Made by a program: the position numbers and the translations under genes
Part shown: in pieces, positions 7,501 through 63,230 of the stretch
Layout: every line of letters begins with the position of its first letter
Numbering within the stretch: position 1 is the stretch's first letter
Assembly (NCBI GenBank): GCA_951406725.2
Contig: OX597840.1
Span: forward strand, 22,878,001 to 22,942,000
DNA: 64,000 bases
Direction: 5' to 3'
Origin: Octopus vulgaris
Lineage: Eukaryota
Notes under the pieces: model-generated
The model's database searches: none
The model's input: the letters and a program-made list of their open reading frames with translations, nothing else
What the model was told of the DNA's origin: nothing

Positions 7501-7516
7501 AAGGGGAACTAACTCC
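7501..7516 (-). promoter_or_regulatory. Empty GGAGTTAGTTCCCCTT motif heading the putative non-coding exon 1 of the 4249..5193 gene
   Basis: Followed on the minus strand by a conserved ~130-nt block ending in ATGATTG|GTAATT; promoter role is inferred. Confidence 0.55.
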
Positions 7517-7574
7517 ATTCTTTAAATAATTGCGGCTTTTCCTTTTTTGTTGCTCTGCATCTTTTCAAAACTTA

Positions 7575-13382: not shown

Positions 13383-13397
13383 AAGGGGAACTAACTC
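13383..13397 (-). promoter_or_regulatory. Empty GAGTTAGTTCCCCTT motif heading the putative exon 1 of the 10147..11268 gene
   Basis: Same downstream exon-like block as at 33888 and 53914. Confidence 0.55.
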
Positions 13398-21587: not shown

Positions 21588-21811
21588 ATTTCTTTACTAC
21601 CCACAAGGGGCTAAACGCAGAGGGGACAAACAAGGACAGACAAACGGATTAAGTCGATTACACCGACCCGAGTGCGTAATTGGTACTTATTTAATTGACC
21701 CCGAAAGGATGAAAGGCAAAGTCGACTACGGCGGAATTTGAACCCAGAACATACCGGCATACGAAATACCGCTGAGCATTTTGCCCGGCGTGCTAACGTT
21801 TCTACCAGCTC
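21588..21811 (-). mobile_element. tRNA-derived SINE with Tx1-like tail
   Basis: B-box GGTTCAAATTCC, core GACTTTGCCTTTCATCCTTTCGGGGTC, tail CCCCTTGTGGGTAGTAAAGAAAT. Confidence 0.85.
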
Positions 21812-27152: not shown

Positions 27153-27369
27153 AACCAGCTTCTCTCTCTCCAACTTGTATACTTTTGTTATGTAGTGGAG
27201 TAGGCATGAGAGGGATGGAGGAGTGAAGAAGAAGTAGAGAAAGGTGATCTTATAATAATTCTGCATGTCGTTACGGTACTTAGCCTGTCAATAACACTCT
27301 CAGCTATTAGAGAAAAAGGGGGAGAAAGAAAAGAGGATAAGGTTAGGAGTGAGGTGGGAAGAGGAAGAA

Positions 27370-28533
27370 AAGACTCAGAAAGAAGTGTGCAAATCCTTCC
27401 TGTCTTTCCTAAAGGGAGCTGGGCTGATGAAGTGCACGCATGCCTTAAGTCATCCATGTTGTGGCCCCAGGTTAAGACCTTAAGCATAATCACAAACATG
27501 TATGCGCACTTACTTGGTGATAGAATGTCTGCAGCATTTGTTGAAGAAATTTTAGCCCTTGGAGAAGACAAGGTCCCTAGGAATGATAGGGGCAACATAT
27601 CAGTCTATGAACTGTGCAACTCCGTGAACAACTCTTCCGGTCTTTTGGAAACAGTGTTCCCCAATCTGGAAAGTAATTATGCAGACATCAATTGGCTCGG
27701 TGAAAGAACCATCCTGGCCCCACAAAACGTAGGTGTCAGTGCTATCAATGACCAGCTCATATGACGAATTCCGGAATCAATTGACCGGACGTCTGACACC
27801 CAAGGCATTGTCATTTACCCTAACGAGTTTCTCAACTCATTGGAGCTAGCAGGGCTTCCACCTCACATTGTTAGGCTAAGGGTTGGATGCCCAATTAGGC
27901 TAATCAGAAACTTACTTCCGCCTAAACAGTGCAACAGGACCAACTTAGTAATCAAGTCCCTTACGCCCCACTTGACTGAGGCCACCATTGTTACAGGGTG
28001 CAGGAGGGGTGAAAATGTTTTCATTTCAAGGATGCAGCTTTATCCCCCCACGGTCAGACATGCCGGTCAAGTTCTGCAGATTGCAATGTCCGGTGAGACC
28101 ATGCTTCACCATGTCCATCAACAAATCCCAAGGCCAAACACCATCGATTTGGGGTTTTCCATTCAATGAGGATAAATAATTGATAAACTAATTCCTTATA
28201 GGATTTCTGCTAAAATTGGCTACACCCAATTTTCAACCATAACTTTTACCAATTTTGACATATTTTGCTCAAACTCGATACCAGCACTACTTAGGACTCA
28301 TGGGATCTTTGAATGCTTTAAGTTCTTAAAAAAAAAAAAAAAAAAACCATTAGTAGAAGTAATCGATAAACTGATTCCTTATGGTATTTCCCAATCAAAT
28401 TGCCTGCGATCCCACTTTCAGCAGATTTCGCACGAATGTGATGTCCTTGTCACTTATTTTGGTTTGAAATAAATCACTTCATCACTTAATGATCCGAATT
28501 TAATACCGAGCAACGCCGGGTTATACTGCTACT
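27370..28533 (+). mobile_element. Helitron 3' remnant (PIF1-like helicase fragments)
   Basis: WLGERTILAP, LPPHIVRLRVGCPIRLIRNL, QCPVRPCFTMSINKSQGQ; terminal CCGAGCAACGCCGGG hairpin followed by CTAC (degenerate CTAG). Confidence 0.85.
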
Positions 28534-28782
28534 CAAATATATATCAGTAAAGCCGTTGATATTTCAAGACAACAGTTAGTTCCCCTTGAACTTTCATCTG
28601 CATTTTGAGAAATTTGCTGCCTTTTGTTGAGAGAGTTCGACTTTTTGCTCATCGTTGTTTGTTGTTAATTGTTAATTGAACAGTGCCCGTTGTGTAACGG
28701 TAATTTTCGCCCTACGGGGCAGAAAATTCTCTGTTTAAAATTGTTATTACCTTCGAGGTAATTTTTGAAACATTTTTGAGAA

Positions 28783-30217
28783 ATGGATTTCGACTTGGCG
28801 TCGAAGAATGATTTTCCCGCGATGGGAACAAGTGAATTAGAGGACACTGAAGTAACAAAACAGTCTTTTTCGGCCGCGGTAGGCGGAACCACGATGGACG
28901 TTGAATTCAAGATCGAACAACTATTCGAATTTCGGAACTTTATAAAAATGGAAGGAAACGAAATCAAACTTGTACCGCCGCAAGCGAAGGTACAGGAAAT
29001 AAAGGAAAAGACAGTTATATACAAAGTGTATAGCTACAAAGAAAAAAAAATCATGGACGTCAGAAACGAGATAGTCGAAAAGTGCTTGTCCCCGGTGTGG
29101 GACAAAATTCGCCATGTCGTTCGAGGTGCTCGCAGCGCTACCGTTGAAGCTCATTTTGACTCGGCTGAGGTAGCAAGAGAGGTGTCATCAATGACCCTGA
29201 AAAATGATGATATCATGTTGCTACCCTCGTATATGGGAAAAAGAACAGCTAAACTGCTGGTAGAGGACATACCGAGAGGGTATGACATAATGTGGGTAGC
29301 AGCGGCGGTCCTGCACAATGTAGAGCGGGAAGTTTCGATTCTGCAGATGAGAAGGAAAGAGGAGGTACGCTGGAAGGGACAGACGCTGGAATTCCTCGTT
29401 CAGGCAGAAAACAAGATATTGGAGAACCTGCCCAATAGGATATTTAACGAAGATGGAACGTCCATGAGAGTGTCAGTGGAGGGACGCAGACCTACGTGCT
29501 TTAAATGTGGCGAGAAGGGTCACGTCCGCTTGAACTGCTTAAAAAAAAAGAAAACCAACGAAGCCCCTCCTCAAAGTGCTTCAAACACTGAAGGGGAGAA
29601 GGCGGAAAAAGAAAACAAGACGACGACAAGCAAAGAAACAGAAATGGAGGATTGTATCGTACAAATGGATTACACACAGGTGACACACAAAAGAAAAAAA
29701 GATAACACCCTGGACTCCCCTCCCCAAACAAGGAAAAAATCAGCAAGCACCGCAGACATACATACAAAGCAAATTCCCCAGCCCTACCCCCACGGCACTG
29801 TATTCATTGGAAAACAGTTCGCCAAGCCCCTCCCCATAAAACAAGATGTGAAAAAGTCTTTAAAAAAATGATAAGATCATTGCTTTTGATGAAAAAAACG
29901 AAAGGGTATATAAATACTATAAATTTTCAAAATTTAAACTATTTAGCAAGGCTACAGACATAAAAGCAACCACTCGCTTCGCAAAAATAAAGGAAGACGA
30001 GTGGAAGGAGGAAATACTACAAGAACATCTAAAGAATAGACTGATAAGAGACGTAACAAAGGAAGTACTGGAGGGTAAACTTGTTATAACCCCGGCAACC
30101 ACACCTACCCAGAGCCCGGTGGCAACGCCGGTTAAGAGCCCTGCAGCTACGACCACAAGGGAGGAAGAAGGGGAAGCGGGCAGATTTAAACTGTCATGCT
30201 CCCTTTCTCAACCGTAA
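28783..30217 (+). pseudogene. LINE A1 ORF1 (gag-like, zinc knuckle), frameshifted at an A-run near 29865
   Basis: CFKCGEKGHVRLNC knuckle; comparison with copy A2 shows the reading frame originally continued to ..SLSQP*. Confidence 0.85.
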
Positions 30218-30243
30218 GTTCATTTATTTTTCTTTCACCGACA

Positions 30244-33200
30244 ATGGCTAAGCTGGGTTGTGTGAATGTACGTGGAATGGGGATGAAATGGAAACAAATT
30301 TGTTTCCTGAACGACCTCACGACACATGGAGTGGACATAGCTATTGCAACCGAGTCCAAGATGAACGAGGCCCAAGCGTTCTCGCCTCTTCTAAATGGGT
30401 TCGAGAAATTTATTTCTCCTAGCCGAGGAAGAGGCAGAGGCGTGGCAGTCCTTATCAGGAAGAGCTTGGACTTGCAGGTAAGTACTGTCTTTCTGGACCC
30501 AGAAGGCAGGCTGGTTGTTCTGGATGTGACCCACGTAAGTAAACAGTCCTTCAGGTTGGTAGCTGTCTTCGCTCCGAACGAGGGTAGACAGACGGGTTTT
30601 TTCGGAACCTGGAGCCCTTTTTAGCGACGTCGAAAACGGTAATCCTAGTAGGGGACTTTAACACTGTCCTTGAAGCGCGGGTCGACAGTGTTGGCTCAAC
30701 CAATAGGAAGGGGAACCCTAGCCTCAAGGGTCTACTAGAGAGCTTTGATCTAGTGGACCGTTACCGACTGGATGAGCCGAGCGTTCCACAGTGGACGTGG
30801 AGTAACAACGACGGCTCACACAGATCGTATTTAGATAGGATATTTATTAAGAAAAGAGATAAGGATACGTTTAGTTGTCCACAGTTTCACATTGTGCCTT
30901 ACACGGATCACAAATTTGTGACGTGTAGGATGCAATTAGATAAGTGTCATAGACAGGGACCCGGGTACTGGAAGCTGAACAAGGCTATTTTGAATTGTGA
31001 AGACTTCCGTACCCGGATTAAGGTGTTAGTACAGAGGGCATTGTGTGGCACCATCATTAACAATAGATGGTGGCACTCCCTCAAAAGAGCCATTCGTTCA
31101 GAGTCCATTAGATTTAGCAATCAGCTAAGGTTACATAGGTCTAGGATAGAGGACGATTTAATTAAGAATCTAAACGAGGCAATGGAAGCTGGCTCTGCAT
31201 CCGGAGTGATGGCGGCAAGGACGGTATTGTACCGTCACCTTAACTCCAAACACGAAGGTTGCAGAGTCAGAGCTAAGCTACGCACTGGGAAACGAGAAGG
31301 TATTAACGTTGCCGGATGGGCCCGTCGAGTGGAGAGTCAGAGAGGTAACAAAGCCTCAATCAAGTCTTTAACTGACGAACAGGGACAAAAGATCTATGGA
31401 CAGGAGGAGATGCAAAAGTTTCTTCACCAGCATTTCGCCCGCGTGTTCGGGGGTGGTGTGGCGCCGGAGCGGGGAGGACCTTAAAGGACTTCCTGGCCGG
31501 CGGGCCGCGGCTCTCGGGGCGTGAGGTGGAGTGCTGTGAAGAAGCGATCACTCCCGCGGAGATAGAGGGGATACTGGCCGGATGCGCCGGGGAGAAGTCG
31601 CCGGGGTTGGATGGTCTGCCCTACGAGTTTTACCAAAGTATGCCGGACTTGTTCGGGGGAATATTGGCAGGCGTCTACACGAACTGGCAGCAGAATGGGA
31701 GAATTCCCAGTTCTGTAAGCCGGGGAGTGGTGACGCTAATCCAGAAAGACCCGAGCAAGGGGGATAACATTAGTAACTACAGGCCCATAACTCTACTTAA
31801 TGTAGAGTTAAAGATTTTGGCCAAGGTGTTGGCAAAAAGGTTGACGGTTGTCGTGGAGAAACTTGTAGGGAGAGCACAGACATGTGCAATTCCAGGCAGG
31901 TCGATCCAGGACAATCTTCACCTTATACGCTACACCTTAGATAGGGTGGGTAAATTAACCGGCAAGGGCGGGGTAATGGTCCATTTAGACCAAAGTAAAG
32001 CGTTCGATAGGGTAGACCATGAGTACCTGGCGACGGTCCTCGAAGCGGCTGGACTGGGCCCTGAATTTCGCGGGTGGATCTCCGCTATGTATAGCGGCAT
32101 CAAGTCCACCGTCCAGATAAACGGTTACCTAACGGAACCGTTTTCGATCGAATGTTCAGTTCGTCAAGGGTGCCCCTTGTCACCACTTTTGTACGTGTTG
32201 GCTCTTGAGCCATTGCTGCGAAAGTTGGAGAGGCTGGGAAGTAACTCGGATGAGATCGGAGGTGGGAGGACGGTTACTGCTTATGCGGATGACGTCACCC
32301 TCATCGTGTCCAATGAGGCCCAGCTACCTTGTGTGGAAGAGGCTATCAGAGGATACGAGGCGGTGGCAGGAGCAAAGGTTAACAAGGACAAGTCGGTTGG
32401 CTTGCGCCTCGGCACCTGGAGGAGCAAGTCGATATCGTCCAGTGTCGTGGGACACTGGACGGATGGCCCTGTTAAGTTGCTAGGAGTTTGGTTTGGGCCA
32501 GACTCCCAAACGGAGAGGAACTGGAGTGAGGTGACGAGCAAGGTGGAGGCCATAGTACGGACCTGGTCCGGAAGGTTTCTGTCCTTGAAAGGAAGGGTGG
32601 AGGTGGTACAGATGTTCATTGCATCTGTAATCACTTACCGCCTGACCGTTGTCCCTTGCCCCGATTCGTGGCTTAGCAAGTTGGAGCGAATCCTTTTCCG
32701 CTTTTTGTGGAAGGGAGGAAAGCCACTTGTGAGGCGCTCCGTTTGCTGCCAGGAACCGTTAAAGGGTGGGTTAGGAATGCCTTGGCTGATGATGCGCAGA
32801 CATGCGTTGAGGCTGAAGCATCTCTGGCACCACCTGGAGGGTGATAAGGTGTGGAGTCCGCTGGCAGGGTAATTTTTCCCGAGACTGGCCTCCTTAGTGA
32901 ATTTTAAACCCGGTCGCATCAAAAGATGGAAACTGACTTTATGGCAAAAGGAGTGCCGACAGGCACCCACGCTGATCCACAAGGCGGGCAAGGCCGGCTG
33001 CGGAAATACCACCTCGGTATTTTATAGAAGTCTGGTAGAGGCAAAGAACGACGACGTCCTAGGAGGGGCTCTGGGGTTTGACGAAGACCAGCTTACCAAC
33101 CTGTTTAAAAAGACTTTCAGGACGGGGTATTTGGATAATTTCCAAAGATCCCTGGCCTGGCAATGCTATAGGAATGCTTTACCTGTTCGCGAGAAGTTAT

Positions 33201-33631
33201 CGCGGCACGGAATTTCAGTGCCACCGACGTGTCCAAGGTGCGAGTTGGACGATGAAACCGTCCAGCACGCTTTTGTACACTGTCGGAAGTTGTCCGACTT
33301 GATAAGTTACGCAGAACACCTGTTATCGCATCTGGGACGAGTACAGCTGTCGGCTGAGTCTATGATTAAGATGATACCGCCAACTGGACTCTCGAAGGAA
33401 GGTGAGGCATGTTTTCACTGCACGGTTGCAGTAGTAAAAGAATGCATGTGGCGTACAAGAATGGAAGGAGTCGCGATAGGATCCTTTGTCTCGGGCCCCG
33501 GCTTGCTCACTTACTTCAGATATCATCTGAAGAGCAAAATGGGGCTGGAAAAGAGGATCTTACCACGGGGTGTGTATGAGAAAAGATGGAAGGAAGTGGA
33601 AAAAAAGGTGGGTGTCAGAAACCCAGCTTAA
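30244..33631 (+). pseudogene. LINE A1 ORF2 (APE endonuclease-reverse transcriptase) with two frameshifts and one stop
   Basis: NVRG, GDFN, YLDRIF, TDHK endonuclease motifs; PGLDG, YRPITLLN, DQSKAFD, QGCPLSP, YADD RT motifs; CPRC..ETVQHAFVHC; lesions near 30600, 31480 and 32870. Confidence 0.92.
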
Positions 33632-33887
33632 CTATGGAGGGAGGAGAGGAAACAAAAGCTGCGGGGCCTTATAAATTGCCGGGGTTTAAAACTTCGGTAA
33701 GATCGAAAGTTTATGAAATGTTATAATATTCTATTGGTCATGTAAAGGACAATTTACAGACGAATTTTTATAATGAATAATCCAAATGTTATGGAAAATT
33801 TTTAATCGAACCTCTTAACTGTTTTTTGCATGTATGTCCTGTATTTGTCCTTCTATGTAACGATTGTATAATCATAATAAAGAAATT

Positions 33888-35851
33888 GGAGTTAGTTCCC
33901 TTTGTTCATTGTCAAAACTCTTCCTCATTAAGTGTATTTCTTGTTCTTGTTTCTCACGCACCTTCATTGTTTGATCAGTTCCACTTGACAACTGATATTT
34001 AAGAGGAGAACCCAATCAAATATATACAAATGATTGGTAATTAACTGTCTAAACAAACAGATACAGCATTTACGATTATGTGGACGTGAAAAATATTAAT
34101 TAACGTTTGTTGTAGAAACCTAGAAATTCTCTTGAAGCTGTCGTTGTCCACTCTGACTCCAGTTCTCACATCTTCCTCCTTCACTCTTTCTCTCCATATC
34201 TATTACTATGTAAGTATTTATTTAAACATTTCTATTATATATGTGTCGTATTATGTACATTTATTTGTTTCGATGTGTTGAGAAAGTTAAAAGAAAAAAA
34301 TCTCACAAAGACGAAATTATACGAAAGGCTGTAATTTTAATACTTTCATTGTGTTGTCGTTTTCTTTTAGACATTTCATTGCACTTTTGGTTATTTTCTA
34401 AATTATTTGTAAAAACGTCGGATCAATCCCTTGTTTAGATAACATTTATCTTTCTTTCTGACGTGTAAATTCGACAATTTCGTTAAATATGGGAAAATTA
34501 CGATGTAATTAGTAAGAAATGGGGAATGTATAAAAATACGAGTGTGCACTTGAAATACTGAAACGAAAAGCAAATATCGTATCGAGAGGAAATGGCTTTT
34601 ATTTGAGACGTAGGAAGTCTTTATTTCTGGTGGTTCTTCTGAATCATTAAATGTTAGAATTAATATGTTTTTCTAATTTATTTAATTTTTGTGTGTGTGG
34701 AGTGCTGCTTTAAGCACCTAATATAATCCCTCGTCACATATTTTTATTTGGGGGAATTTTCAGAAATTTTTCCGTACGAGAAATCGTTCGGTCATGCAAC
34801 CAAAAAAAGAAAAAAATCAACTGCGATTTATGAGCTATTTAGCTGTTATTTTTCGCACATCTCACGACCAGTATGGTAATAATTCTCTGCTTAAGTTCCT
34901 CTGGGCTTGCAGGAAGAGGGGAGACATAGACTAGGCCCTCCCTGAGAAAGAAATGGCAAGGTGTCAGCTCAGGTGAACGTGGCGGCCATTTCAACAGCAC
35001 ATTGCCTTCTTCAAGACGCGCCAAACTCTTTGGAGGAATCTGGCTTTCATTCTCCACATCAACCAATAATTTTTCCTACATTAAAATTTCCCCACTAAGG
35101 ATTTTGATGCTGTAAGTGAGACATCAATATTATTTACTGACATTTATTCATCTTTTATGCTCACCAAAATATTAACGTTGAGCTAACCGCATATATATGT
35201 ATATATATATGTATTTGTATATATGGCTCCCATGCAGGTGGCATGTAAAAAGTACCATTCGAGCATGATTGATGCTAGTGATGCCTGACTTGCACCCATG
35301 CCGGTGGCACATACGAAGCTCCTTTCAAGCATGGTCGATGCCAATGCTACCTGACTGGCTCCGTGGCACATAAAAGGCAACCACTACACGCTCAAACAGC
35401 ATCCAGCTGTAGAAATCTTGCCTGATAAGATTGAAACCTTGTTCAGCCTCATGGCTTGCCAGTCCTCAGTCAAACCTCACAACCCATGCCAGTGTGAAAA
35501 GCAGATGTTAAACGATGATGATGAAGGTAGAGAAAGAGCGATGTCTGTTTTAGCAAACAAAGATACAAGACTGCAATGAAAACATCAGAAATCTAGTGTC
35601 ATTTATATGTATATTGGTGTGTGTGGAAGTGTGTCTATGACAGACTTTATATTCTAGGAGTTGGTATTATAATAGATGTGTCTACTCTATGATATAAACA
35701 TTTTGGTAATGCAGAAATGGGATAAATTTAATAGTTCAGATAAAGAATTACATCTAAAATTTTTGAAACAAGAAATGTCGTAAATTTGCACTTTTGAATA
35801 TCTGCCTTTTAAACATACTTGATATCTTGTATTATTTTCGTATTCTTTCAG
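33888..35851 (+). other. Putative spliced non-coding 5' leader of the 36319 ZNF gene (exons ~33890-34036, 34138-34209, 34371-~34505; last acceptor at 35851)
   Basis: Donors GTAATT and GTAAGT and acceptors CTCTTGAAG, TTTCTTTTAG, TTCTTTCAG, conserved at equivalent positions in the paralogous units. Confidence 0.55.
34868..35055 (-). mobile_element. Tc1/mariner transposase C-terminal fragment
   Basis: WPPRSPELTPCHFFL..EELKQRI motif. Confidence 0.72.
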
Positions 35852-48364: not shown

Positions 48365-51300
48365 AAAGTCCACCTTGGCAGAATTTAAATGCAAATGTCA
48401 TGTCAGAAGAACCACAGCTAAGCATTTTCCCCAATGTGCTAACGACCCTGCCAGTTCGCCACTTTAGTTTATTATTAATTACTAGTGGGACCCATGTAAA
48501 TTCTACGGAATGAAAAAAATTAAGAGGACCTATTTAAGAAAGAGAGGATGATTTGCATTTTTATAGCATTCATAGTTTTAGCTTTCTTTGAATATACTTG
48601 GCATCTGTCTACATCCAATTCCTCACAACACCATCGGTGCCATTTTTTTCCACTTTTTTATTATATCTTCTTAGTGTTCTATGCTCTAGATCTGTGCATC
48701 TTTTCTCAGGCAGCTTGCAACTGTGTCTCTTGTGAATCCATAGTTTAGGCTAAATTAATCCTTAGAAACAAATATCAATCTCTTAAGTGAGAAGACGATA
48801 AATAATTGCACAGAAGTGCAAGTGTTGAGTGATGGTCTCTATAAAAAAAAGAAATTCCTTTTCACTATCAACACACCACCACCATCATCTCTCTCTCTCT
48901 GCCTTTCTTTAATCTCACCATCAGAACATCACCCCTCTGCTAAGATTATATTTTTAACTCTTCTCTATATCACAACCTTCAGCTAGCTTTTTTAACCATA
49001 AAATAACTATTACATTCCCCCTATCACATGTCATACTTGCTTCTTTCTTAGTCTTTTGTCTCTCCTTTTTCTTCCTTTCTCTATTTGCCTCACTCTTTGT
49101 CTTATCATCTTTTCTCTCTCTACCCCCTTTTCTCTAATAACATGAAAGTGTTACTGATGAGCTAAGTAACAGAATGAGAAGCAGAATTATTATAAGATCA
49201 CCTTACTCTATTTCTCCCTCCCTTTTCTCCAATTCTATCCCCACCCCTTATTTATTCCACTAATCTAATGAAAGCATAACAGCTGTACAAACAAGCTGGT
49301 TATTATATATATACATAAATATCATTTTTGTCTGAGGTTTGGATAATATTTTTTGCAGAGTAATTACATATCACATAAGGAGACTGGAAAACAGTTTGAT
49401 AGTATTTATTCAGCATTACATATGTTTCATTACCTAATAGGAATTACAAACTTTTAGACTAAGAGAAAACATGTAAAATATCTCCTATAAGAAATTCTTC
49501 ATATATACATATATACACGTGTGTGTGTGTATGCACAAGTGAGTGTATCCTTGTACAGACATTATGTGATGTCCGTAAATGGCCATCATGACCGTCATAC
49601 TTCTGCAGTTCTTCATTTCCAGTCCTCTGCGTAAATTATGTCTCACCAGGGAAAATATTTCCTTGCTTGGAAACAGGTGAGGATTGGTGACAAGAAAGGC
49701 TACCCAGCTCAGGAAAAGCTCCATCAATGAATTCCATCTGATCCATTGAAGCATGGAAAAGCGAATTTTAAATGATGATGATTATCATCATTGTAGTGAT
49801 ATGGTTCCTCTTCTGTATGAATGCAGTTATGTTTTAATAATTGATCATTTCCATAGATTGATTTAGCACAAATGTCTTAGGGTATGGCTTTATCTTTCAT
49901 ATTAATATGACTGTGTAGAATTCTCCATTTTGATAGAATGATTAAGCACTGCTATCACAGTGATATGTTCTCCTTCCTCTGTCAATGCTCTTTTGATTCG
50001 TTAATGGATCATTTTAAATGAAAGGCTTACCATTGATATCACTTTGATATAGTTTCTTTCTTGTGTAGAGGGTTTTATGAGATACAAACTCGTCCTTCTC
50101 AAGGAATGTTATACAACCAATGTTGCTGTGTTATGGATCAACTTCATAACGAATACACTTGTGTTTAATTGAGTGATGTTTCTGTGAGAATGATTTACCA
50201 CAGATGTCACAGTGGTATGGTTTCTCACCTGTATGAATACGCTTGTGTGGGGTTAAGCTACCGCTTTCAGAGAATGATTTACCACAGATATCACAGGAAT
50301 ATGGTTTGTCTCCTGTATGAATACGTTTGTGTTTAATTAAGGTACTGCAATCAGAGTATGATTTATCACAAATATCACAGTGGTATGGTTTCTCCCCTGT
50401 ATGAATACGCTTGTGGTTGGTTAGGGTACTGCCACCAGAGAATGATTTACCACAGATATCACAGTGATATGGCTTGTCTCCTGTATGAATACGTTTATGT
50501 TTAGTTAAGCTACTGCCATCAGAGAATGATTTACCGCAGATATCACAGTGATATGGTTTATCCCCTGTATGAATACGTTTGTGAGTGGTTAGGTCACTAT
50601 TTCTAGAGAATGATTTACCACAGATATCACAGGGATATGGCTTGTCTCCTGTATGAATACGTTTGTGTGCAGTTAAGTTACTGCCACCAGAGAATGATTT
50701 ACCGCAGATATCACAGTGATATGGTTTGTCCCCTATATGAATACGCTTGTGAATATCTAAGCTATGAGCATGAGAGAATGATTTACCACAGATATCACAG
50801 TGATATGGTTTCTCACCTGTATGAATACGTTTGTGGTTAGCTAAGTCACTCCTTTGATAGAATGATTTACCACAGATATCACAGTGGTGTGGTTTCTCAC
50901 CTGTATGAACACGTTTGTGTTGAGTTAAGCTACTGCTTTGAGAGAATGATTTACCACAGATATTACAGGTATATGGTTTTTCTCCTGTATGAATACGTTT
51001 ATGTTTAGTTAAGCTACTGCCAACAGAGAATGATTTACCACAGATATCACACTGATATGGTTTCTCCCCTGTATGAATACGTTTGTGTGTAGCTAGGCTA
51101 CTGCCAGCAGAGAGTGATTTACCACAGATATCACAGGGATATGGTTTCTCTCCTGTATGAATATGTATGTGTCGTGTTAAGTGACTGCTACTTAAGAATG
51201 ATTTACCACAGATACTACAGTGATATGGTGCTTCCTCTGTATGAATTTGTTTGTGTTGATTGAATTTACTTTCTTCTAAGAATGACTCTTTGCAGATGTC

Positions 51301-52040
51301 ACAGTCATACGATGATTTTCCTAATTCTTCCGACATCTCTTCAAGAAAAATAAAACTGAACCTTCAAGTTGTACAGATCAACAACTTTTCAAAAATATTT
51401 ATCCTCTCACCAAAATATATGGATATTTTGCTTCTTTTTGCTTTTATAGTTTATTCCAAACAAATATCACTTCTCTTATATTTCTTCTGAACGTAATCAA
51501 TGCTAATATTTAAAAATGTTGCAAATACTCTTTGGAAATCTACCAAAGTATATTTAAAAGAGAAGATTATCTTTTGCACATTTCAGACACAGAAGTAAAG
51601 AAATGCTTTCTCTCTCTGAGGAAATATTTTACTGTAATTCAGCAATGTTTTATAGAAGCAGGATTATACGTTTGTAGAATATCTTTGCAGAGTCTTTCAA
51701 ACATGATACATATTGATGATTCTTTAAAAGTAAAAAATACTTTTTAGCCAATTTCATGTGATTTTTCTGAAAGAATAGAAAAAATAATATAAGACATAAA
51801 GCATGTTTAAAAGGCAGATATTCAAAAGTGAAAATTTACGACATTTCTGTTTTCATAAATTGTAGAATTGATCCTTTATCTGAACTATTATATTCATCCC
51901 ATCTCTCTATTTTCAAGAGGTTTATATCACAGACACATCCATCGTAATAACACCTCCTGGACATTGCGTCTGTCCTAGACACACACACACACACACCAAT
52001 ATACATGTCAATGACAGTAGATATCTGATGTTTTCCCCTC
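48365..52040. repeat. Segmental duplication, direct copy of ~8240-11970
   Basis: Shared 3' flank, ZNF and upstream sequence. Confidence 0.9.
50131..51336 (-). CDS. Tandem C2H2 zinc-finger protein, ~14 fingers
   Basis: 401-aa ORF; paralogue of 10147..11268. Confidence 0.92.
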
Positions 52041-53927
52041 AGTGTTCTATTGTATCAACACAGGTTTGCTTTATAACATAGATATCACTCCTCCTCTGCC
52101 TCTTTCTGTATATGCGTAAATATACAAATATATATATGTGGTTAGCTTAATGTTAACCTTTTGTTGAGCATAAAAGATGCATAAAAGTCAGTAAATAATA
52201 TTGATGTCTGACTTGCAGCATCAAAATCTTTTGTGGGGAATTTTTGATGTTAAGAAAAATTGTTGGTTGATGAAATTGGTGACAATCCTTCTCCATGGGG
52301 CAAATGGAAGAGGCTTCAATGAAGTCTATCCTTATTTTACGGAAAAACTATAATTTCTTTTCATTGTTATGCACATAGTTTTAAAATTTAACCATTCTTG
52401 TTATTTCCTTTTAATTATAAATTCTTACACATTATAATTAATGTTTCTCTTCCTTGTTGCTTCAAAACGAAATATTGTTTATCTGGATGAGTGAAAAATA
52501 TATTCATATTAAATATATACGCATTACGAAGAAAGAAAAGGATAACTTGCATAATTAATTGAAAATAACATTAAAAAAAGGGTGCAATTCTGCTTTAAAC
52601 ATTATATAGTTCCTTAAAATTTTTTCCCCATTTTTCTGTGGAATTTTCGGAAAATTCTCCAAATTTGTGACCTACATTATCAAAAAAATTGTTTCCCATT
52701 TTTTAAAAAATTGCCACTGTAGAACTTTGCTTAAATCCCAACAATGTGTTTATGTGGAGAAGGATATCTTTTCTACTCTAGGCACAAGGCCAGAAATTTT
52801 GGGAGAGGGAGGCCCAGTGGATTAGATAGACCCCAGTACGCAACTGGTACTAAATTTATCGACCTCGAAAGGATGAAAGGCAAAGTCGACCTCGGCGGAA
52901 TTTGAACTCACGTGCTAACGATTCTACCAGCTCGCCGGTTTTATATGGAGAAAAATACTGAAAAACGTCAGCACATCAGAGTGACAAAGAAACTAGGGAG
53001 GTATCAGGTGGTAGTGAGATGTGCGAAAAATAACAGCCAAATAGCTCTTAAAGCACACAGTTTTTGCTTTTTTGTTGAATTCTCGTGTGTAGAATATGTA
53101 TTTGCAAAAATTTTCTGAAAATTCCGGAAAAAACAAAACAAACCCCAGATATTAATTGTAAGTTGTAATGATGCAGAAGAAACGCCAGAAATAAAGACTT
53201 CCTATGTCTCAAATAAAAGCCATTTCCTCTCGATACGATATTTGCTTTCGTTTTAGTATTTCAAGTGCACACTCGTATTTTTATACATTCCCCATTTCTT
53301 ACTAATTACATCGTAATTTTCCCGCTTTTAACGAAATCGTCGAATTTACACGTCAGAAAGAAAGATAAATGTTATCTAAACAAGGGATTGATCCGACGTT
53401 TTTACAAATAATTTAGAAAATAACCAAAAGTGCAATGAAATGTCTAAAAGAAAACGACAACACAATGAAAGTATTAAAATTACAGCCTTTCGTATAATTT
53501 CGTCTTAGTGAGATTTTTTTTCCTTTTAACTTTCTCAACACATCGAAACAAATAAATGTACATAATACGACACATATATAATAGAAATGTTTAAATAAAT
53601 ACTTACATAGTAATAGATATGGAGAGAAAGAGTGAAGGAGGAAGATGTGAGAACTGGAGTCAGAGTGGACAACGACAGCTTCAAGAGAATTTCTAGGTTT
53701 CTACAACAAACGTTAATTAATATTTTTCAGGTCCACATAATCGTAAATGCTGTATCTGTTTCTTTAGACAGTTAATTACCAACCATTTGTATATATTTTA
53801 TTGGGTTTTCTCTTAAATATCAGTCGTCAAGTGGAACTGATCAAACAATGAAGGTGCGTGAGAAACAAGAACAAGAAATACACTTAATGAGGAAGAGTTT
53901 TGACAATGAACAAAGGGAACTAACTCC

Positions 53928-55618
53928 AATTTCTTTATTACCCACCAGGGGCGACGAAGGGGGGACATTACAAAACATTGGGGACATAGAACATTAACAT
54001 TAAATTTATGAACAATGAATTAATAAATGAAAAAATGATAATATGAAAGCGACGCTAACGGCCCCATCCGCCAGCATCACTTACCTGTCCTTTATCACCC
54101 ATTTCCAATTACAATTCCTAGTTTTTCTCACACTCTTCGTTTTCCTTTCATACATCTCTATCATTTCACCCTGCATCGGCACTGTCATCCATTTTATACG
54201 CTCTTCCTCACACCTCCTCGCCAATGTCTCCATAAATTCATATTTCACAACCGCGTAACTACCATCTTCATGTTCGCGCCATAAGTCTTTATGTACCATC
54301 CTTTTCGAGTTCTGGGTGTCCCTTCTCCTCGCAACACACAAAAAATAGGTCCTGGGACTTTGTTCGTTCTGTGTGTCTGCATTTGTTTTTGTTTTTCTTG
54401 TAGGCGGGGAGTGGGTGGTATCGCTGTTTGCAGGGGAGGGATGGGACTCAGATGGTACGGGTGGTGTTGGGGTGGGTTAGGGTTTCGTACTGTTTTCTTT
54501 TTTCTTTCTTTTCCTTTTTTTTTCTCCCTTCTTCCCACTCTTGCTGGATCTCCTCCCCTTCAGTTGCTTCCCTTTCTGTTTGGTTCTCCTTTTCTTTAGT
54601 GTCTTCCTTCTTTTGGGGTTCCGTAACGATTTCCTTTTCCTTTGGTGGGGGAGGGCAGTAGGCTCTTATGTGACCCCTCAGGCCACACTTATAGCACCTG
54701 GGTGCCCTGCCCTCCACCCACACTCTCATAATAATGTTCCCCGTTCCTACAGTATCTGTCAGCCCTTCCACTGCTTCCGCCTCCGTCTGTATATTCATGT
54801 CCAAGGTAGCACCTCTCACGCCTTCGTATTTCATCGTGGCGTGGAGGATGTCCACCTTTTCCTCGTTTCCCTTAATCACCGCTGCCGTTATGTATTCACC
54901 CTCTAGGTGTGGAGGTATTCCCCCCACCCTAATTCTTGTGGTCCTTCTATTTAGATACGAGGGCAGTAAGTATATTTTCTCGGTCTTCACCACCTTGGCT
55001 GCTATTTTTTTGGCGACGTTCTCACTTCTATACTGCACCGTTACCGTTCCACACTCCATTCCTCCAGTCAGGTAAACAATTTCCTCTCCAGTCTGTTTCA
55101 ATGCCTCTTCAATAACTTCCATATTGACTATTTCCATCTTTCTTCCTCCATTCTCGTACACTCTATATTTTATGGTTCTACGGTTGAACCACTCGCCCCG
55201 CTTTGCTGGAGGTGACACCTCGACTTCGCCGTTCTCCTCCTCCTTCATAAAATTCTGGAAGCCTGGTAGTTCAGCCAGGTCCACCTCTTTTTCTATCGAC
55301 TTCCTCATTATTCCTGCGTAGGTACTTTCCAGCTTCCTGTCCATTTTTGCCACTGCTTCTTCCAACTCCTCCTCAGATGTTGACAATTCCGGCAAACTTT
55401 CAAATAAATACCTCCCGGCCATCTCACCAGTTAGGGAGAGGCGGCTCATAATCTCCTCAGACCGAAAACGGCCGCCCAAACAGAAACAGTGCAACGCGCA
55501 GAACCAGTGCGACGCGAAACCGCATCAACCGAAGTTCAAAACTCCACAACAACAACACTTTTTGTTCTTTTTCACCGAATTCTACGAGCCGAGAATAACA
55601 CAACCGACGTCAAACGTT
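53928..55618 (-). mobile_element. ORF1-only non-autonomous Tx1-like element (HAL1-like, element B), ~1.7 kb
   Basis: ORF 54448..55494 is homologous to A ORF1 (LLPSY, VEGRAPRCYKCGLRGHIRAYC); no RT; 3' end TAATAAAGAAAT; perfect 14-bp flanking repeat GGAGTTAGTTCCCT. Confidence 0.85.
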
Positions 55619-55889
55619 AGGGAACTAACTCCATATTTCTTTATTATGATTATACAATCGTTACATAGAAGGACAAATACAGGACATACATGCAAAAAAC
55701 AGTTAAGAGGTTCGATTAAAAATTTTCCATAACATTTGGATTATTCATTATAAAAATTCGTCTGTAAATTGTCCTTTACATGACCAATAGAATATTATAA
55801 CATTACATAAACTTTCGATCTTACCGAAGTTTTAAACCCCGGCAATTTATAAGGCCCCGCAGCTTTTGTTTCCTCTCCTCCCTCCATAG

Positions 55890-58800
55890 TTAAGCTGGGT
55901 TTCTGACACCCACCTTTTTTTCCACTTCCTTCCATCTTTTCTCATACACACCCCGTGGTAAGATCCTCTTTTCCAGCCCCATTTTGCTCTTCAGATGATA
56001 TCTGAAGTAAGTGAGCAAGCCGGGGCCCGAGACAAAGGATCCTATCGCGACTCCTTCCATTCTTGTACGCCACATGCATTCTTTTACTACTGCAACCGTG
56101 CAGTGAAAACATGCCTCACCTTCCTTCGAGAGTCCAGTTGGCGGTATCATCTTAATCATAGACTCAGCCGACAGCTGTACTCGTCCCAGATGCGATAACA
56201 TGTGTTCTGCGTAACTTATCAAGTCGGACAACTTCCGACAGTGTACAAAAGCGTGCTGGACGGTTTCATCGTCCAACTCGCACCTTGGACACGTCGGTGG
56301 CACTGAAATTCCGTGCCGCGATAACTTCTCGCGAACAGGTAAAGCATTCCTATAGCACTGCCAGGTCAGGGATCTTTGGAAATTATCCAAATACCCCGTC
56401 CTGAAAGTCTTTTTAAACAGGTTGATAAGCTGGTCTTCGTCAAACCCCAGAGCCCCTCCTAGGACGTCGTCGTTCTTTGCCTCTACCAGCCTTCTATAAA
56501 ATACCGAGGTGGTATTTCCGCAGCCGGCCTTGCCCGTCTTGTGGATCAGCGTGAGTGCCTGTCGGCACTCCTTTTGCCATAAAGTCAGTTTCCATCTTTT
56601 GATGCGACCGGGTTTAAAATTCACTAAGGAGGCCGGTCTCGGGAAAAATTCCCCTGCCAGCGGACTCCACACCTTATCACCCTCCAGGTGGTGCCAGAGA
56701 TGCTTCAGCCTCAACGCATGTCTGCGCATCATCAACCAAGGCATTCCTAACCCACCCTTTAACGGTTCCTGGCAGCAAACGGAGCGCCTCACAAGTGGCT
56801 TTCCTCCCTTCCACAAAAAGCGGAAAAGGATTCGCTCCAACTTGCTAAGCCATGAATCGGGGCAAGGGACAACGGTCAGGCCTTAAGTGATTACAGATGC
56901 AATGAACATCTGTAACACCTCCGCCCTTCCTTTCAAGGACAGAAACCTTCCGGACCAGGTCCGTACTATGGCCTCCACCTTGCTCGTCACCTCACTCCAG
57001 TTCCTCTCCGTTTGGGAGTCTGGCCCAAACCAAACTCCTAGCAACTTAACAGGGCCATCCGTCCAGTGTCCCACGACACTGGACGATATCGACTTGCTCC
57101 TCCAGGTGCCGAGGCGCAATTCAACCGACTTGTCCTTGTTAACCTTTGCTCCTGCCACCGCCTCGTCTCTTCTGATAGCCTCTTCCACACAAGGTAGCTG
57201 GGCCTCATTGGACACGAATAGGGTGACGTCATCCGCATAAGCAGTAACCGTCCTCCCACCTCCGATCTCATCCGAGATACTTCCCAGCCTCTCCAACTTT
57301 CGCAGCAATGGCTCAAGAGCCAACACGTACAAAAGTGGTGACAAGGGGCACCCTTGACGAACTGAACATTCGATCGAAAACGGTTCCGTTAGGTAACCGT
57401 TTATCTGGACGGTGGACTTGATGCCGCTATACATAGCGGAGATCCACCCGCGAAATTCAGGGCCCAGTCCAGCCGCTTCGAGGACCGTCGCCAGGTACTC
57501 ATGGTCTACCCTATAGAACGCTTTACTTTGGTCTAAATGGACCATTACCCCGCCCTTGCCGGTTAATTTACCCACCCTATCTAAGGTGTAGCGTATAAGG
57601 TGAAGATTGTCCTGGATCGACCTGCCTGGAATTGCACGTCTGTGCTCTCCCTACAAGTTTCTCCACGACAACCGTCAACCTTTTTGCCAACACCTTGGCC
57701 AAAATCTTTAACTCTACATTAAGTAGAGTTATGGGCCTGTAGTTACTAATGTTATCCCCCTTGCTCGGGTCTTTCTGGATTAGCGTCACCACTCCCCGGC
57801 TTACAGAACTGGGAATTCTCCCATTCTGCTGCCAGTTCGTGTAGACGCCTGCCAATATTCTCCCGAACAAGTCCGGCATACTTTGGTAAAACTCGTAGGG
57901 CAGACCATCCAACCCCGGCGACTTCTCCCCGGCGCATCCGGCCAGTATCCCCTCTATCTCCGCGGGAGTGATCGCTTCTTCACAGCACTCCACCTCACGC
58001 CCCGAGAGCCGCGGCCCGCCGGCCAGGAAGTCCTTTAAGGTCCTCCCCCGCTCCGGCGCCACACCACCCCCGAACACGCGGGCGAAATGCTGGTGAAGAA
58101 ACTTTTGCATCTCCTCCTGTCCATAGATCTTTTGTCCCTGTTCGTCAGTTAAAGACTTGATTGAGGCTTTGTTACCTCTCTGACTCTCCACTCGACGGGC
58201 CCATCCGGCAACGTTAATACCTTCTCGTTTCCCAGCGCGTAGCTTAGCTCTGACTCTGCAACCTTCGTGTTTGGAGTTAAGGTGACGGTACAATACCGTC
58301 CTTGCCGCCATCACTCCGGATGCAGAGCCAGCTTCCATTGCCTCGTTTAGATTCTTAACTAAATCGTCCTCTATCCTAGACCTATCTAACCTTAGCTGAT
58401 TGCTAAATCTAATGGACTCTGAACGAATGGCTCTTTTGAGGGAGTGCCACCATCTATTGTTAATGATGGTGCCACACAATGCCCTCTGTACTAACACCTT
58501 AATCCGGGTACGGAAGTCTTCACAATTCAAAATAGCCTTGTTCAGCTTCCAGTACCCGGGTCCCTGTCTATGACACTTGTCTAATTGCATCCTACACGTC
58601 ACAAATTTGTGATCCGTGTAAGGCACAATGTGAAACTGTGGACAACTAAACGTATCCTTATCTCTTTTCTTAATAAATATCCTATCTAAATACGATCTGT
58701 GTGAGCCGTCGTTGTTACTCCACGTCCACTGTGGAACGCTCGGCTCATCCAGTCGGTAACGGTCCACTAGATCAAAGCTCTCTAGTAGACCCTTGAGGCT

Positions 58801-59278
58801 AGGGTTCCCCCTTCCTATTGGTTGAGCCAACACTGTCGACCCGCGCTTCAAGGACAGTGTTAAAGTCCCCTACTAAGACTACCGTTTTCGACGTCGCTAA
58901 AAAGGGCTCCAGGTTCCGAAAAAAACCCGTCTGTCTACCCTCGTTCGGAGCGTAGACAGCTACCAACCTGAAGGACTGTTTACTTACGTGGGTCACATCC
59001 AGAACAACCAGCCTGCCTTCTGGGTCCAGAAAGACAGTACTTACCTGCAAGTCCAAGCTCTTCCTGATAAGGACTGCCACGCCTCTGCCTCTTCCTCGGC
59101 TAGGAGAAATAAATTTCTCGAACCCATTTAGAAGAGGCGAGAACGCTTGGGCCTCGTTCATCTTGGATTCGGTTGCAATAGCTATGTCCACTCCATGTGT
59201 CGTGAGGTCGTTCAGGAAACAAATTTGTTTCCATTTCGTCCCCATTCCACGTACATTCACACAACCCAGCTTAGCCAT
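55890..59278 (-). pseudogene. LINE A2 ORF2 (APE-RT) with frameshifts near 58810 and 57635 and a stop at 56883
   Basis: Same motifs as A1 ORF2, split across four ORF fragments. Confidence 0.92.
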
Positions 59279-59305
59279 TGTCGGTGAGAGAAAAAATAAA
59301 TGAAC

Positions 59306-60742
59306 TTACGGTTGAGAAAGAGAGCATGACAGTTTAAATCTGCCCGCTTCCCCTTCTTCCTCCCTTGTGGTCGTAGCTGCAGGGCTCTTAACCGGCGTTG
59401 CCACCGGGCTCTGGGTAGGTGTGGTTGCCGGGGTTATAACAAGTTTACCCTCCAGTACTTCTTTTGTTACGTCTCTTATCAGTCTATTCTTTAGATGTTC
59501 TTGTAGTATTTCCTCCTTCCACTCGTCTTCCTTTATTTTTGCGAAGCGAGTGGTTGCTTTTATGTCTGTAGCCTTGCTAAATAGTTTAAATTTTGAAAAT
59601 TTAAAGTATTTATATACCCTCTCGTTTTTTTCATCAAATGCAATGATCTTATCATTTTTTTTTAAAGACTTTTTCACATCTTGTTTTATGGGGAGGGGCT
59701 TGGCGAACTGTTTTCCAATGAATACAGTGCCGTGGGGGTAGGGCTGGGGAATTTGCTTTGTATGTATGTCTGCGGTGCTTGCTGATTTTTTCCTTGTTTA
59801 GGGAGGGGAGTCCAGGGTGTTATCTTTTTTTCTTTTGTGTGTCACCTGTGAGTAATCCATTTGTTCGATACAATCCTCCGTTTCTGTTTCTTTGCTTGTC
59901 GTCGTCTTGTTTTCTTTTTCCGCCTTCTCCCCTTCAGTGTTTGAAGCACTTTGAGGAGGGGCTTCGTTGGTTTTCTTTTTTTTTAAGCAGTTCGAGCGGA
60001 CGTGACCCTTCTCGCCACATTTAAAGCACCTAGGTCTGCGCCCCTCCACTGACAATCTCATGGACGTTCCATCCTCATTAAATATCCTATCGGGCAGGTT
60101 CTCCAATATCTTGTTTTCTGCCTGAACGAGGAGTTCCAGCGTCTGTCCCTTCCAGCGTACCTCCTCTTTCCTTCTCATCTGCAGAATCGAAACTTCCCGC
60201 TCTACATTGTGCAGGACCGCCGCTGCTACCCACATTATATCATACCCTCTCGGTATGTCCTCTACCAGCAGTTTAGCTGTTCTTTTTCCCATATACGAGG
60301 GTAGCAACATGATATCATCATTTTTCAGGGTCATTGATGACACCTCTCTTGCTACCTCAGCCGAGTCAAAATGTGCTTCAACAGTAGCGCTGCGAGCACC
60401 TCGAACGACATGGCGAATTTTGTCCCACACCGGGGACAAGCACTTTTCGACTATCTCGTTTCTAACGTCCATAATTTTTTTTTCTTTGTAGCTATACACT
60501 TTGTATATAACTGTCTTTTCCTTTATTTCTTGTACCTTCGCTTGCGGCGGTACAAGTTTGATTTCGTTTCCTTCCATTTTCACCAAGTTCCTAAATTCGA
60601 ACAGTTGTTCGATCTTGAATTCAACGTCCATCATGGTTCCGCCTACCGCGGCCGAAAAAGACTGTTTTTTTACTTCAGTGTCCTTTAATTCACTTGTTCC
60701 CATCGCGGGAAAATCATTCTTCGACGCCAAGTCGAAATCCAT
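59306..60742 (-). pseudogene. LINE A2 ORF1, 478 codons interrupted by one in-frame TAA at 59798
   Basis: ORFs 59798..60742 and 59306..59677 are in the same frame; CCHC knuckle CFKCGEKGHVRSNC. Confidence 0.87.
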
Positions 60743-60978
60743 TTCTCAAAAATGTTTCAAAAATTACCTCGAAGGTAATAACAATTTTAAACAGAATTTT
60801 CTGCCCCGTAGGGCGAAAATTACCGTTACACAACGGGCACTGTTAACACAAACAACGATGAGCAAAAAATCGAACTCTCTCAAAAAAAGGCAGCATATTT
60901 CTCAAAACGCAGATGAAAGTCAACAAGGGGAACTAACTCTTGTCTTGAAATTTTAACGGCTTTACTGATATATATTTG

Positions 60979-62150
60979 AGTAGCAGTATAACCCGGCGTT
61001 GCTCGGTATTAAATTCGGATCATTAAGAGATGAAGTGAGTTATTTCAAACTAAAATAAGTGACAAGGACATCACATTCGTGCGAAATCTGCTGAAATTGG
61101 GATCGCAGGGAATTTGATTGGGAAATACCATAAGGAATCAGTTTATCGATTATTTCTACTCATCGCTTTTTTGGAGAACTTAAAGCATTCAAAGATCCCA
61201 TGAGTCCTAAGTAATGCTGGCATCGAGTTTGAGCAAAATATGTCAAAATTGGTAAAAGTTATGGCTGAAAATGGGGTGTAGCCAATTTTAGCAGAAACCC
61301 TATAAGGAAATAGTTTATCAATTATTTATCCTCATTGAATTGAAAACCCCAAATCGATGGTTTTTGGCCTTGGGATTTATTGATGGAGATGGTGAAGCAT
61401 GGTCTCACCGGACATTGCAATCTGCAGAACTTCACCGGCATGTATGACCGTGGGGGATAAAGCTGCATCGTTGAAATGAAAACATTTTCACCCCTCCTGC
61501 ACCCTGTTACAATGGTGGCCTCAATCAAGTGGGGCGTCAGGGACTTGATTACTAAGCGGGTCCTGTGGCACTGTTTAGGTGGAATTAAGTTTCTGATTAG
61601 CCTAATTGGGCATCCAACCCTTAGCCTAACGATGTGAGGTGGAAGCTCTTCTGGCTCCAATGAGTTGAGAAACTTGTTAGGGTAAATGACAATGCCTTGG
61701 GGGTCAGACGTCAGGTCAATTGATTTGTAGATGTACTCCTCACCCGGAATTCGTCATATGAGCTGGTCATTGATAGCACTGACACCTACGTTTTGTGGGG
61801 CCAGGATGGTTCTTTCACCGAGCCAATTGATGTCTGCATAATTACTTTCCAGATTGGGGAACACTGTTTCCAAAAAAACCAGAAGGGTTGTTCACGGAGT
61901 TGCACAGATCATAGATTGATATGTCGCCCCTATCATTCCTAGGGACCTTGTCTTCTCCAAGGGCTAAAATTTCTTCAGCAAATGCAGCAGACATTCTATC
62001 ACCAAGCAAGTGCGCATGCATGTTTGTGCTTAGGCTTAAGGTCTTAGCCTGGGGCCACAACATGGATGACTTAAGGCATTCGTGCACTTCATCAGCCCTG
62101 CTCCCTTTAGGAATGACAGGAAGGATTTGCACACTTTTTTCTGAGTCTTT
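60979..62150 (-). mobile_element. Helitron 3' remnant, duplicate of 27370..28533
   Basis: Same helicase motifs and terminal hairpin in reverse orientation. Confidence 0.85.
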
Positions 62151-63230
62151 TCTTCCTCTTCCCACCTCACTCCTAACCTTATCGTCTTTTCTTTCTTTTT
62201 AGCCAATTTCATGTGATTTTTCTGAAAGAATAGAAAAAATAATATAAGACATAGAATATGTTTAAAAGGTAGATATTCAAAAGTGCAAATTTATAACACT
62301 TCTATTTTGCTAAATTGTAGAAGTATTAAACTTATCCAATCTCATCATTTTTGAGAAGTTTCTATCATAGAGTGGACACATGTATTATAATAACAACTCC
62401 TAGACACACCAATGAAGCAGGAAAATCTGTGACAATGTATTAATGTGAACACAAAGAGTGGTAGAACCAACTGCAGTACAGAAAAGGACATTATATGAAT
62501 TTCATTGTGAACCCCCGGGGATGTCATGACTGTAAGCTTTGATGGGGAGTCATGTGTATTGGCCAGCAATGGACCGGGACATTCAAAATTTGGTAAAAAT
62601 CATGTAGAGATTGTGCATTAGCAGCCAAGGCACCACCAGAGAAATACCAATTGTGGTCTGAGACTATGAGTTTGTGGTCCTGGGTACATATAGACTATGC
62701 TTGAGCTACTTGATCATGATTGATAGCCTTACAAAGTGGTTGGAAGGATGTAGGTGCAGTCAACCTACCTTGAAGGCAACTATAACGTTCCTGCACAAAT
62801 TCTTTTGCTCAGTACGGTGTTTGGATCTTTTCCTTTTGAACGGTAGACAATTTCTAGTTAACTAAACACTTTCAAACTTCATATACTGGTAGAATGTGTC
62901 AAAATAAAACATTTTTAGGAAATAGGAAATAACCAAAAGTGCAATGAAATGTCTAAAAGAAAACAAACAGAATGAAAGTATTAAAATAACAGCCTGGATC
63001 TTTTCGGTTTGAACGGCAGTTTTTAACATAATTTCTAGGTAACTAAAAAATTTTAAACTTCGTATACTGGTAAAATATGTTTATAGAATATTTTTTTCTC
63101 TTGGCTTTGTTGAGAAAATTCTGTACTTTGAAAGATATTTGTTGTTGTATTTTTCTGCAATTTCAGCCAATCATTGACGTCTATTGAGGTAGAAAACATT
63201 CTGTGCCGTATGAATGTGTCCCTCGTTTAA

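Follow-up and report, generated by a model that had tools for sequence, protein, structure and literature searches.

A candidate ORF1-only, HAL1-like retrotransposon stacked behind an L1/Tx1-group LINE in an octopus zinc-finger gene cluster

HAL1 elements, which encode only the protein of the first open reading frame (ORF1p) of a long interspersed element (LINE), are non-autonomous derivatives of the L1 group reported to have arisen several times in mammals (PMC5753468). TRE5-A.2 of Dictyostelium, likewise ORF1-only, is described as being mobilized in trans, sharing the target of the autonomous element, and forming tandems at that target (PMC5391098). HeT-A and other ORF1-only telomeric elements of Drosophila are reported to depend on the ORF2 of other families, to form head-to-tail mixed arrays, and to have lost ORF2 repeatedly (bioRxiv 10.1101/2025.06.09.658640). 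Insertion at specific targets is known from the Tx1 group (PMC3747384, PMC5203782, PMC8869645); the targets that these sources list are rRNA, tRNA, snRNA, and spliced-leader genes, microsatellites, telomeric repeats, and other transposons. Considered here is a 1,690-bp element, called H, in a 64,000-nucleotide stretch of Octopus vulgaris DNA (assembly GCA_951406725.2, contig OX597840.1, positions 22,878,001 to 22,942,000 of the forward strand; hereafter the window), where C2H2 zinc-finger genes are clustered (84-bp repeats; Pfam). With a rough probability of 0.6, H is a HAL1-like, ORF1-only non-autonomous retrotransposon that was mobilized in trans by a borrowed ORF2 of the L1/Tx1 group.

H occupies positions 53929-55618 of the window on the minus strand and lies head-to-tail between the 3' end of a LINE upstream and the leader of a zinc-finger gene downstream, where an earlier reading of the letters alone (the sequence-only reading) had placed an element of ~1.7 kb. 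The LINE, A2 (55634-60926, minus strand), comprises an ORF1 with a CCHC knuckle, an APE endonuclease, a reverse transcriptase (RT), and zf-RVT, and is interrupted by stops and frameshifts. The 15-mer TGGAGTTAGTTCCCT is identical at both ends of H, with the 5' copy of this target-site duplication (55619-55633, minus strand) abutting the 3' tail of LINE A2 and the 3' copy (53914-53928, minus strand) followed by the zinc-finger gene leader; the repeat is as perfect as had been claimed but measures 15 bp, not 14. Within these limits, all on the minus strand, a 5' untranslated region (UTR) of 169 nt (55450-55618) precedes the main ORF1 frame of 333 residues (54448-55449, with its ATG at 55449 and its stop at 54448), a C-terminal continuation in another frame (54081-54476, 131 residues open), and a 3' UTR of 152 nt (53929-54080), so that the UTRs of its own ascribed to the element are both present. 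The 3' UTR ends in TAATAAAGAAAT, which precedes both of the 15-bp repeats, with one additional A on the LINE side. Pfam gave no APE or RT match in H, and the 3' UTR holds no ORF2 remnant: none was found in the six frames of 53929-54480 against 287 proteins, RT proteins among them, and six LINE A fragments that include ORF2 pieces, the lone match being to an ORF1 relative, P0002 (E = 0.3). Rfam scans of the 5' and 3' regions of H returned 0 matches and no ribozyme. H shows three of the five features defined for a HAL1-like element, namely an ORF1 homologue, no ORF2, and retrotransposition hallmarks of its own (the perfect 15-bp duplication and a LINE-type 3' tail). Because H is ORF1-only and carries a cleanly duplicated target site and UTRs of its own, it would either have moved with an ORF2 from elsewhere or have lost its own ORF2 later.

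The protein encoded by H carries the LLPSY motif and a CX2CX4HX4C knuckle and is 30% identical over ~310 residues to the ORF1 proteins of LINE A2 and of its paralogous copy A1 (E about 1e-44); the claim that H encodes a divergent ORF1 homologue and nothing else is upheld. Its layout consists of a predicted N-terminal helix, two RNA recognition motif (RRM)-like domains (about residues 82-168 and 166-248 of the predicted model), the CCHC knuckle (251-266), and a charged linker. AlphaFold, run on 71 sequences, modelled the protein with confidence (mean pLDDT, the predicted local distance difference test, 83.7), and the top Foldseek matches to this model were tandem-RRM proteins (E = 9e-6). In a wide structure search (VIA), residues 81-168 matched an RRM best (Z 9.1-9.2, root-mean-square deviation 2.4-2.5, 81 aligned residues) and residues 166-248 matched RRM/ACT-like folds (Z up to 8.2); these Z values are middling, and a fold in common is no evidence of function. 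The best ESM Atlas clusters (0.90-0.93), eukaryotic CCHC and ZCCHC3-like RNA-binding proteins, are a lead only. Type I LINE ORF1 proteins are defined by one or more RRMs directly upstream of a CCHC knuckle (PMC4120745, PMC5203782), and since tandem RRM-like folds precede the knuckle in the model, the H protein is predicted to be a type I ORF1. In this respect H differs from mammalian HAL1, whose ORF1 is of the Transposase_22 type; the two are alike as ORF1-only non-autonomous elements, but H is octopod, has a structured-looking tail instead of poly(A), and is known from one copy.

P0002 runs unbroken across both frames of H, and the start of the second frame matches it (48% over 48 residues, E = 4e-8); the two frames are therefore one ORF1 with a single frameshift. 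A continuation after a frameshift had been proposed at 54081-54341; it is real, but starts earlier, the frame being open from 54476 to 54081. The ORF1 stop codons of H (54079-54084, minus strand) and LINE A (~30214-30219, plus strand) both lie inside GTAAGT, a splice-donor-like hexamer. An origin of H as a spliced LINE transcript through this hexamer was considered and rejected, since the donor-like site is still in H.

LINE A is the obvious neighbour against which to place H. Its Pfam domains are APE, RVT_1, and zf-RVT, and its best solved relative is human L1 ORF2p (E = 3e-50, versus 7e-26 for R2); on these domains and this relative LINE A belongs to the L1/Tx1 group, with no named Tx1 reference among the 120 matches listed. 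The features of the Tx1 group, an APE and RT ORF2 of the L1 group together with an RRM/CCHC ORF1, were found for LINE A and H taken together, the ORF2 lying in LINE A, and LINE A resembles the LINEs of the Tx1 clade (Tx1L and relatives), as these are described, in its two ORFs, RRM/CCHC ORF1, and APE-RT ORF2.

H itself stands apart from LINE A. A HMMER scan with the first 300 residues of its ORF1 matched 217 proteins with an E of 0.001 or less; 150 of them were listed, and some, such as the top row P0001, match through repeated knuckles only. Organism names were obtained for nine of the 18 ORF1 matches looked up, and all nine are octopod (genera Octopus and Argonauta). Word-index protein searches with H ORF1 scored none of 3257 candidates of near length and none of 115 shorter ones, a result that is uninformative since HMMER found 217. 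The closest relative is P0002 (XP_036368115, O. sinensis), identical at 69 of 119 core positions. In an ORF1 tree of the 53 of 71 aligned rows with at least 120 core residues, H and P0002 are paired at 100/99, apart from A1 and A2, which group with P0014 (O. bimaculoides) at 100/100; a clade of H, A1, and A2 is rejected (p-AU 2e-12; 17 rows, picked after the first tree). The 5' UTRs of H and LINE A show no similarity (score reached by 1261 of 2000 shuffles). With the ORF1 clade rejected, the 5' UTRs unrelated, and the tails alike over 12 nt only, H fails as a direct derivative of LINE A, and its origin as a LINE A deletion product was discarded on the 30% ORF1 identity and the rejected clade. 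The comparison thus supports H as an ORF1-only element without long terminal repeats (non-LTR) whose lineage is distinct from that of LINE A. The sequence-only reading had proposed a distinct non-autonomous family borrowing a site-specific ORF2; a distinct ORF1-only element stands, but LINE A as the partner does not agree with the tree or the tail. Eight of the ORF1 relatives (P0005, P0010, P0016, P0021, P0026, P0041, P0078, and P0083) are longer and share a C-terminal motif, roughly YxxLKxxFPxDVG; several of these are annotated as host 'uncharacterized' or CCHC proteins, and a profile of their C-terminal domain did not detect the C-termini of H and LINE A (best E 0.058).

By analogy, H would work like HAL1, TRE5-A.2, and the Drosophila telomeric elements and so follow a known way of life. 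TRE5-A.2, as described, is the closest match to the whole model of the sequence-only reading. It is, however, a direct derivative of its partner and is positioned near tRNA genes, whereas H is only 30% like its neighbour and has as its candidate target a motif ~2.1-2.6 kb upstream of zinc-finger ORFs. HeT-A, unlike H, belongs to the Jockey clade and sits at chromosome ends, while H is internal and bears a 15-bp duplication. Telomeric elements of the HeT-A type are not expected to have target-site duplications.

Whether H represents a family is weighed against a simpler origin, in which H is a single full-length LINE of the H/P0002 lineage whose ORF2 was lost by internal deletion during or after insertion, with no ORF1-only family behind it. 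Such an origin is rather unlikely, but several observations agree with it and weigh against a HAL1-like family. One copy of H is in view, within a 64-kb window, and its ORF1 is frameshifted, so this copy is either dead or mis-assembled; the frameshift may be genuine or an assembly artefact. Divergent ORF1 lineages of this kind are numerous in octopods (the 217 matches, with the named ones octopod), so the 30% identity to LINE A is ordinary. ORF1 in ORF1-only elements is expected to be under selection and to evolve faster than in the autonomous relative. The branch of H in the ORF1 tree is 0.47 and that of its sister P0002 is 0.21, and relative-rate tests gave p < 0.05 with none of 13 outgroups, so that no acceleration of H ORF1 is seen. 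On the side of the HAL1-like reading, a search of sequencing runs listed 24, with no RNA run among the holders of H; 20 hold part of H (11 studies, four organisms), and four of the 24 (three studies, three organisms) hold at least half of the H words as near-identical DNA. The 16 runs below half were not used, and the matches, which carry no control for flanks, do not separate many copies from a single orthologous locus in close species. Metagenome scans gave 165 pattern matches, none confirmed, and 0 matches for the tail pattern.

Against a one-off deletion stands the structure of H itself, which favours a family because ORF2 is gone without a remnant while the ORF1 stop codon, the tail, the 5' UTR, and the duplication are intact. 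A deletion would have to take all of ORF2 yet spare the stop, the tail, and both target repeats; since only 152 nt follow the ORF1 stop, a chance event would need both of its ends in short non-coding stretches.

The 3' tail bears on which ORF2 might have mobilized H. The sequence-only reading had H ending like the LINE, which holds for the last 12 nt and for nothing beyond them: the tail match between H and LINE A is reached by 37 of 2000 shuffles, and by 460 of 2000 once these 12 nt are dropped. A 225-bp SINE-like repeat (short interspersed element; 21588-21812, minus strand), so labelled from its size and the presence of its body at five other places in the window, is closer. Its tail aligns with the last 80 nt of H better than any of 2000 shuffles (when the final 12 nt are left out, 1 of 2000 scores as high), the match spanning about the last 45 nt of H; Rfam gave 0 matches to this repeat. 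Because the two tails are alike and SINE tails usually derive from the partner LINE (PMC3747384), H and the SINE-like repeat likely answer to the same kind of ORF2, which probably came from a sister lineage of LINE A. The SINE-like body also occurs at 520, 24504, and 52816, where it ends in another tail; differing tails on one body suggest tail swapping between partner LINEs.

A mechanism can be proposed in which H RNA would be made from the 5' UTR of H and coated in cis by H ORF1p. An octopus ORF2p of the L1/Tx1 group would recognize the tail ending in AAUAAAGAAAU, which is common to H, LINE A, and the SINE-like repeat, would nick just 5' of TGGAGTTAGTTCCC, possibly with help from base pairing between the tail and the similar AAAGAA(A)T beside the motif, and would prime there. 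A second nick 15 bp away would yield a duplication that restores the site, such that elements could stack. The ORF2p would probably have come not from LINE A but from a cognate partner in the H/P0002 lineage, a sister LINE.

The site at which H and LINE A meet raises the question of targeting. The 14-mer of the flanking repeat has three exact occurrences in the window, two bounding H and the third at the LINE A1 3' end; allowing up to three mismatches there are 10, against 4.0 expected, and 10 are reached in 1 of 100 shuffles. Near-matches lie at the 5' ends of A1 and A2 and in two empty paralogous zinc-finger leaders (7503-7517, TTTAAAGAATGGAGTTAGTTCCCC, and 13385-13398, both minus strand); a third leader, near 14880, has by eye an apparently decayed motif with a short deletion. 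Independent events at the motif number two, LINE A once and H once, with 3' ends within 1 nt of each other, and that two lineages only 30% alike should end so closely at a pre-existing motif is suggestive of targeting. The sequence-only reading went too far in regarding H as the strongest independent evidence of target specificity, given that the events are only two, that the one SINE-like copy with an H-type tail lies off the motif at an unrelated site, and that a loss of H from A1, considered below, fits equally well.

A competing account, which falls just short of an even chance and fits either origin of H, is that a relaxed L1-type endonuclease locally reused a TT/AAAG-like site together with the 12-nt tail match to LINE A. 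Because TTTAAAGA stands immediately 5' of the motif at the empty sites and the last 12 nt of H and LINE A are the same, a ready primer match, a relaxed endonuclease and primer pairing could stack H. Tandem Alu insertion is a precedent for local site reuse of this kind, and both the off-motif SINE-like copy and the small number of independent events agree with it; the off-motif copy also speaks against strict specificity of the tail-reading enzyme. Site reuse leaves unexplained why lineages so unlike should end within 1 nt at a motif kept in empty paralogues, and the Tx group is described as target-specific in insertion (PMC3747384). The odds that the enzyme seeks the motif, as opposed to merely reusing a favourable site, are about even.

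The copies of the motif that flank LINE A are less orderly than those that flank H. They lie at 28572-28592 and 60920-60940 (5') and at 33888-33925 and 53890-53927 (3'), and the 5' and 3' copies differ at 3 of 21 positions, which exceeds the 1-5% divergence around them; they are therefore not a clean duplication, a further point against targeting with regeneration of the site. The 3' flank of LINE A has nine extra nt (CATTGTCAA) relative to the empty sites. The discrepancy possibly arose from flanks of different paralogues or from the remnant of an earlier insertion. The most far-reaching proposal, that Tx1-like LINEs of octopus, together with an old ORF1-only lineage evolving on its own, home to GAGTTAGTTCCC in C2H2 zinc-finger leaders, regenerate the motif, and stack in tandem, is improbable at present. 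A search of the literature, with Repbase and supplements outside it and subscription papers mostly uncovered, found no account of an octopus ORF1-only LINE or of the motif as a target.

The paralogous copy of the LINE, A1 (28586-33887, plus strand), has the same flanks as A2 and no H. The absence of H from A1, as first described, is confirmed, but the two sites are not independent insertions, because their flanks are the same over 1.2 kb on the 5' side and 0.8 kb on the 3' side; their alignment covers 27323-34666, with a Helitron fragment on the 5' side and the 0.8-kb leader on the 3' side. A1 and A2 are thus one insertion copied along with its flanks, and counting them as two independent hits on the target was rejected on the same ground. 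The A1 junction, GAAAT-TGGAG, equals the 3' junction of H, while the LINE junction of A2 reads GAAATATGGAG with an extra A. An alternative history, in which LINE A and H already stood in tandem before the locus was copied and recombination between the repeats of 12 plus 15 nt then removed H from A1, accounts for these letters with no further change; as a corollary, the tandem may have arrived as one co-inserted unit. The junction letters are accounted for equally well by loss from A1 and by gain in A2. Gain in A2, though, needs only one 1-nt indel, and A1 and A2 already differ by several small indels. In addition, divergence of ~1% on both sides of the junction (ORF2 32/3339, 3' UTR 1/255, first 400 nt of flank 6/402), compared with 57/1196 (4.8%) in the 5' flank and 15/376 (4%) further out on the 3' side, fits, without proving, a conversion tract followed by a young insertion of H with its perfect duplication. 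On balance, earlier loss of H from A1 is a doubtful but live alternative to gain in A2.

The A1/A2 pair has further features of its own. Between the ORF1 copies (28783-30214, plus strand, and 60742-59306, minus strand) there are 14 synonymous differences in 293 sites and 16 non-synonymous in 1087 (Fisher p = 0.002), which indicates purifying selection; ORF1 is as deeply diverged as the 5' flank, whereas ORF2 is ~1% diverged and neutral (7/773 synonymous, 25/2566 non-synonymous). The pair is a mosaic, with ORF1 under apparent selection after a local duplication. The 7.3-kb unit of Helitron fragment, LINE A, and 0.8-kb leader (27323-34666 and 62196-53149) is 95-99% alike between its two copies, whereas the coding parts of the two inverted zinc-finger paralogues that contain it are only ~84-87% alike, which looks like ectopic conversion between the paralogues. 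The Helitron (Pif1 helicase) fragment lies at 27210-28530 (plus strand) and 61322-62198 (minus strand), and what we take to be its 3' end is ~40 nt upstream of the motif at the 5' end of LINE A in both copies. Elsewhere in the window are the C2H2 zinc-finger ORF at 50131-51363 (minus strand), which starts 2.55 kb downstream of the motif, and a tandem array of 13 copies of a 61-bp GC-rich unit at 23598-24388.

If neither a family nor a motif preference is true, H is an ordinary deleted LINE that reused the site of its neighbour. If H does represent a family, half-LINEs would be extended to molluscs and to lineages with a type I ORF1, and H would be a naturally occurring example in which to ask why an element parasitic on a LINE retains an ORF1 of its own and how a common tail gives access to a foreign ORF2. 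The tail shared with H suggests as well that a common SINE-like repeat of octopus has a partner of the L1/Tx1 type. The targets listed for the Tx1 group in the sources cited at the outset do not include the leaders of a protein-coding gene family; if the motif preference is true, such leaders would join them, and the motif would supply a short, testable endonuclease substrate. Should LINEs and an ORF1-only lineage in fact home together to zinc-finger leaders, a protein-coding multigene family would be the target of sequence-specific insertion, a half-LINE and an abundant SINE would have one tail signal in common, and retrotransposon homing would be tied to the turnover of octopus zinc-finger clusters.

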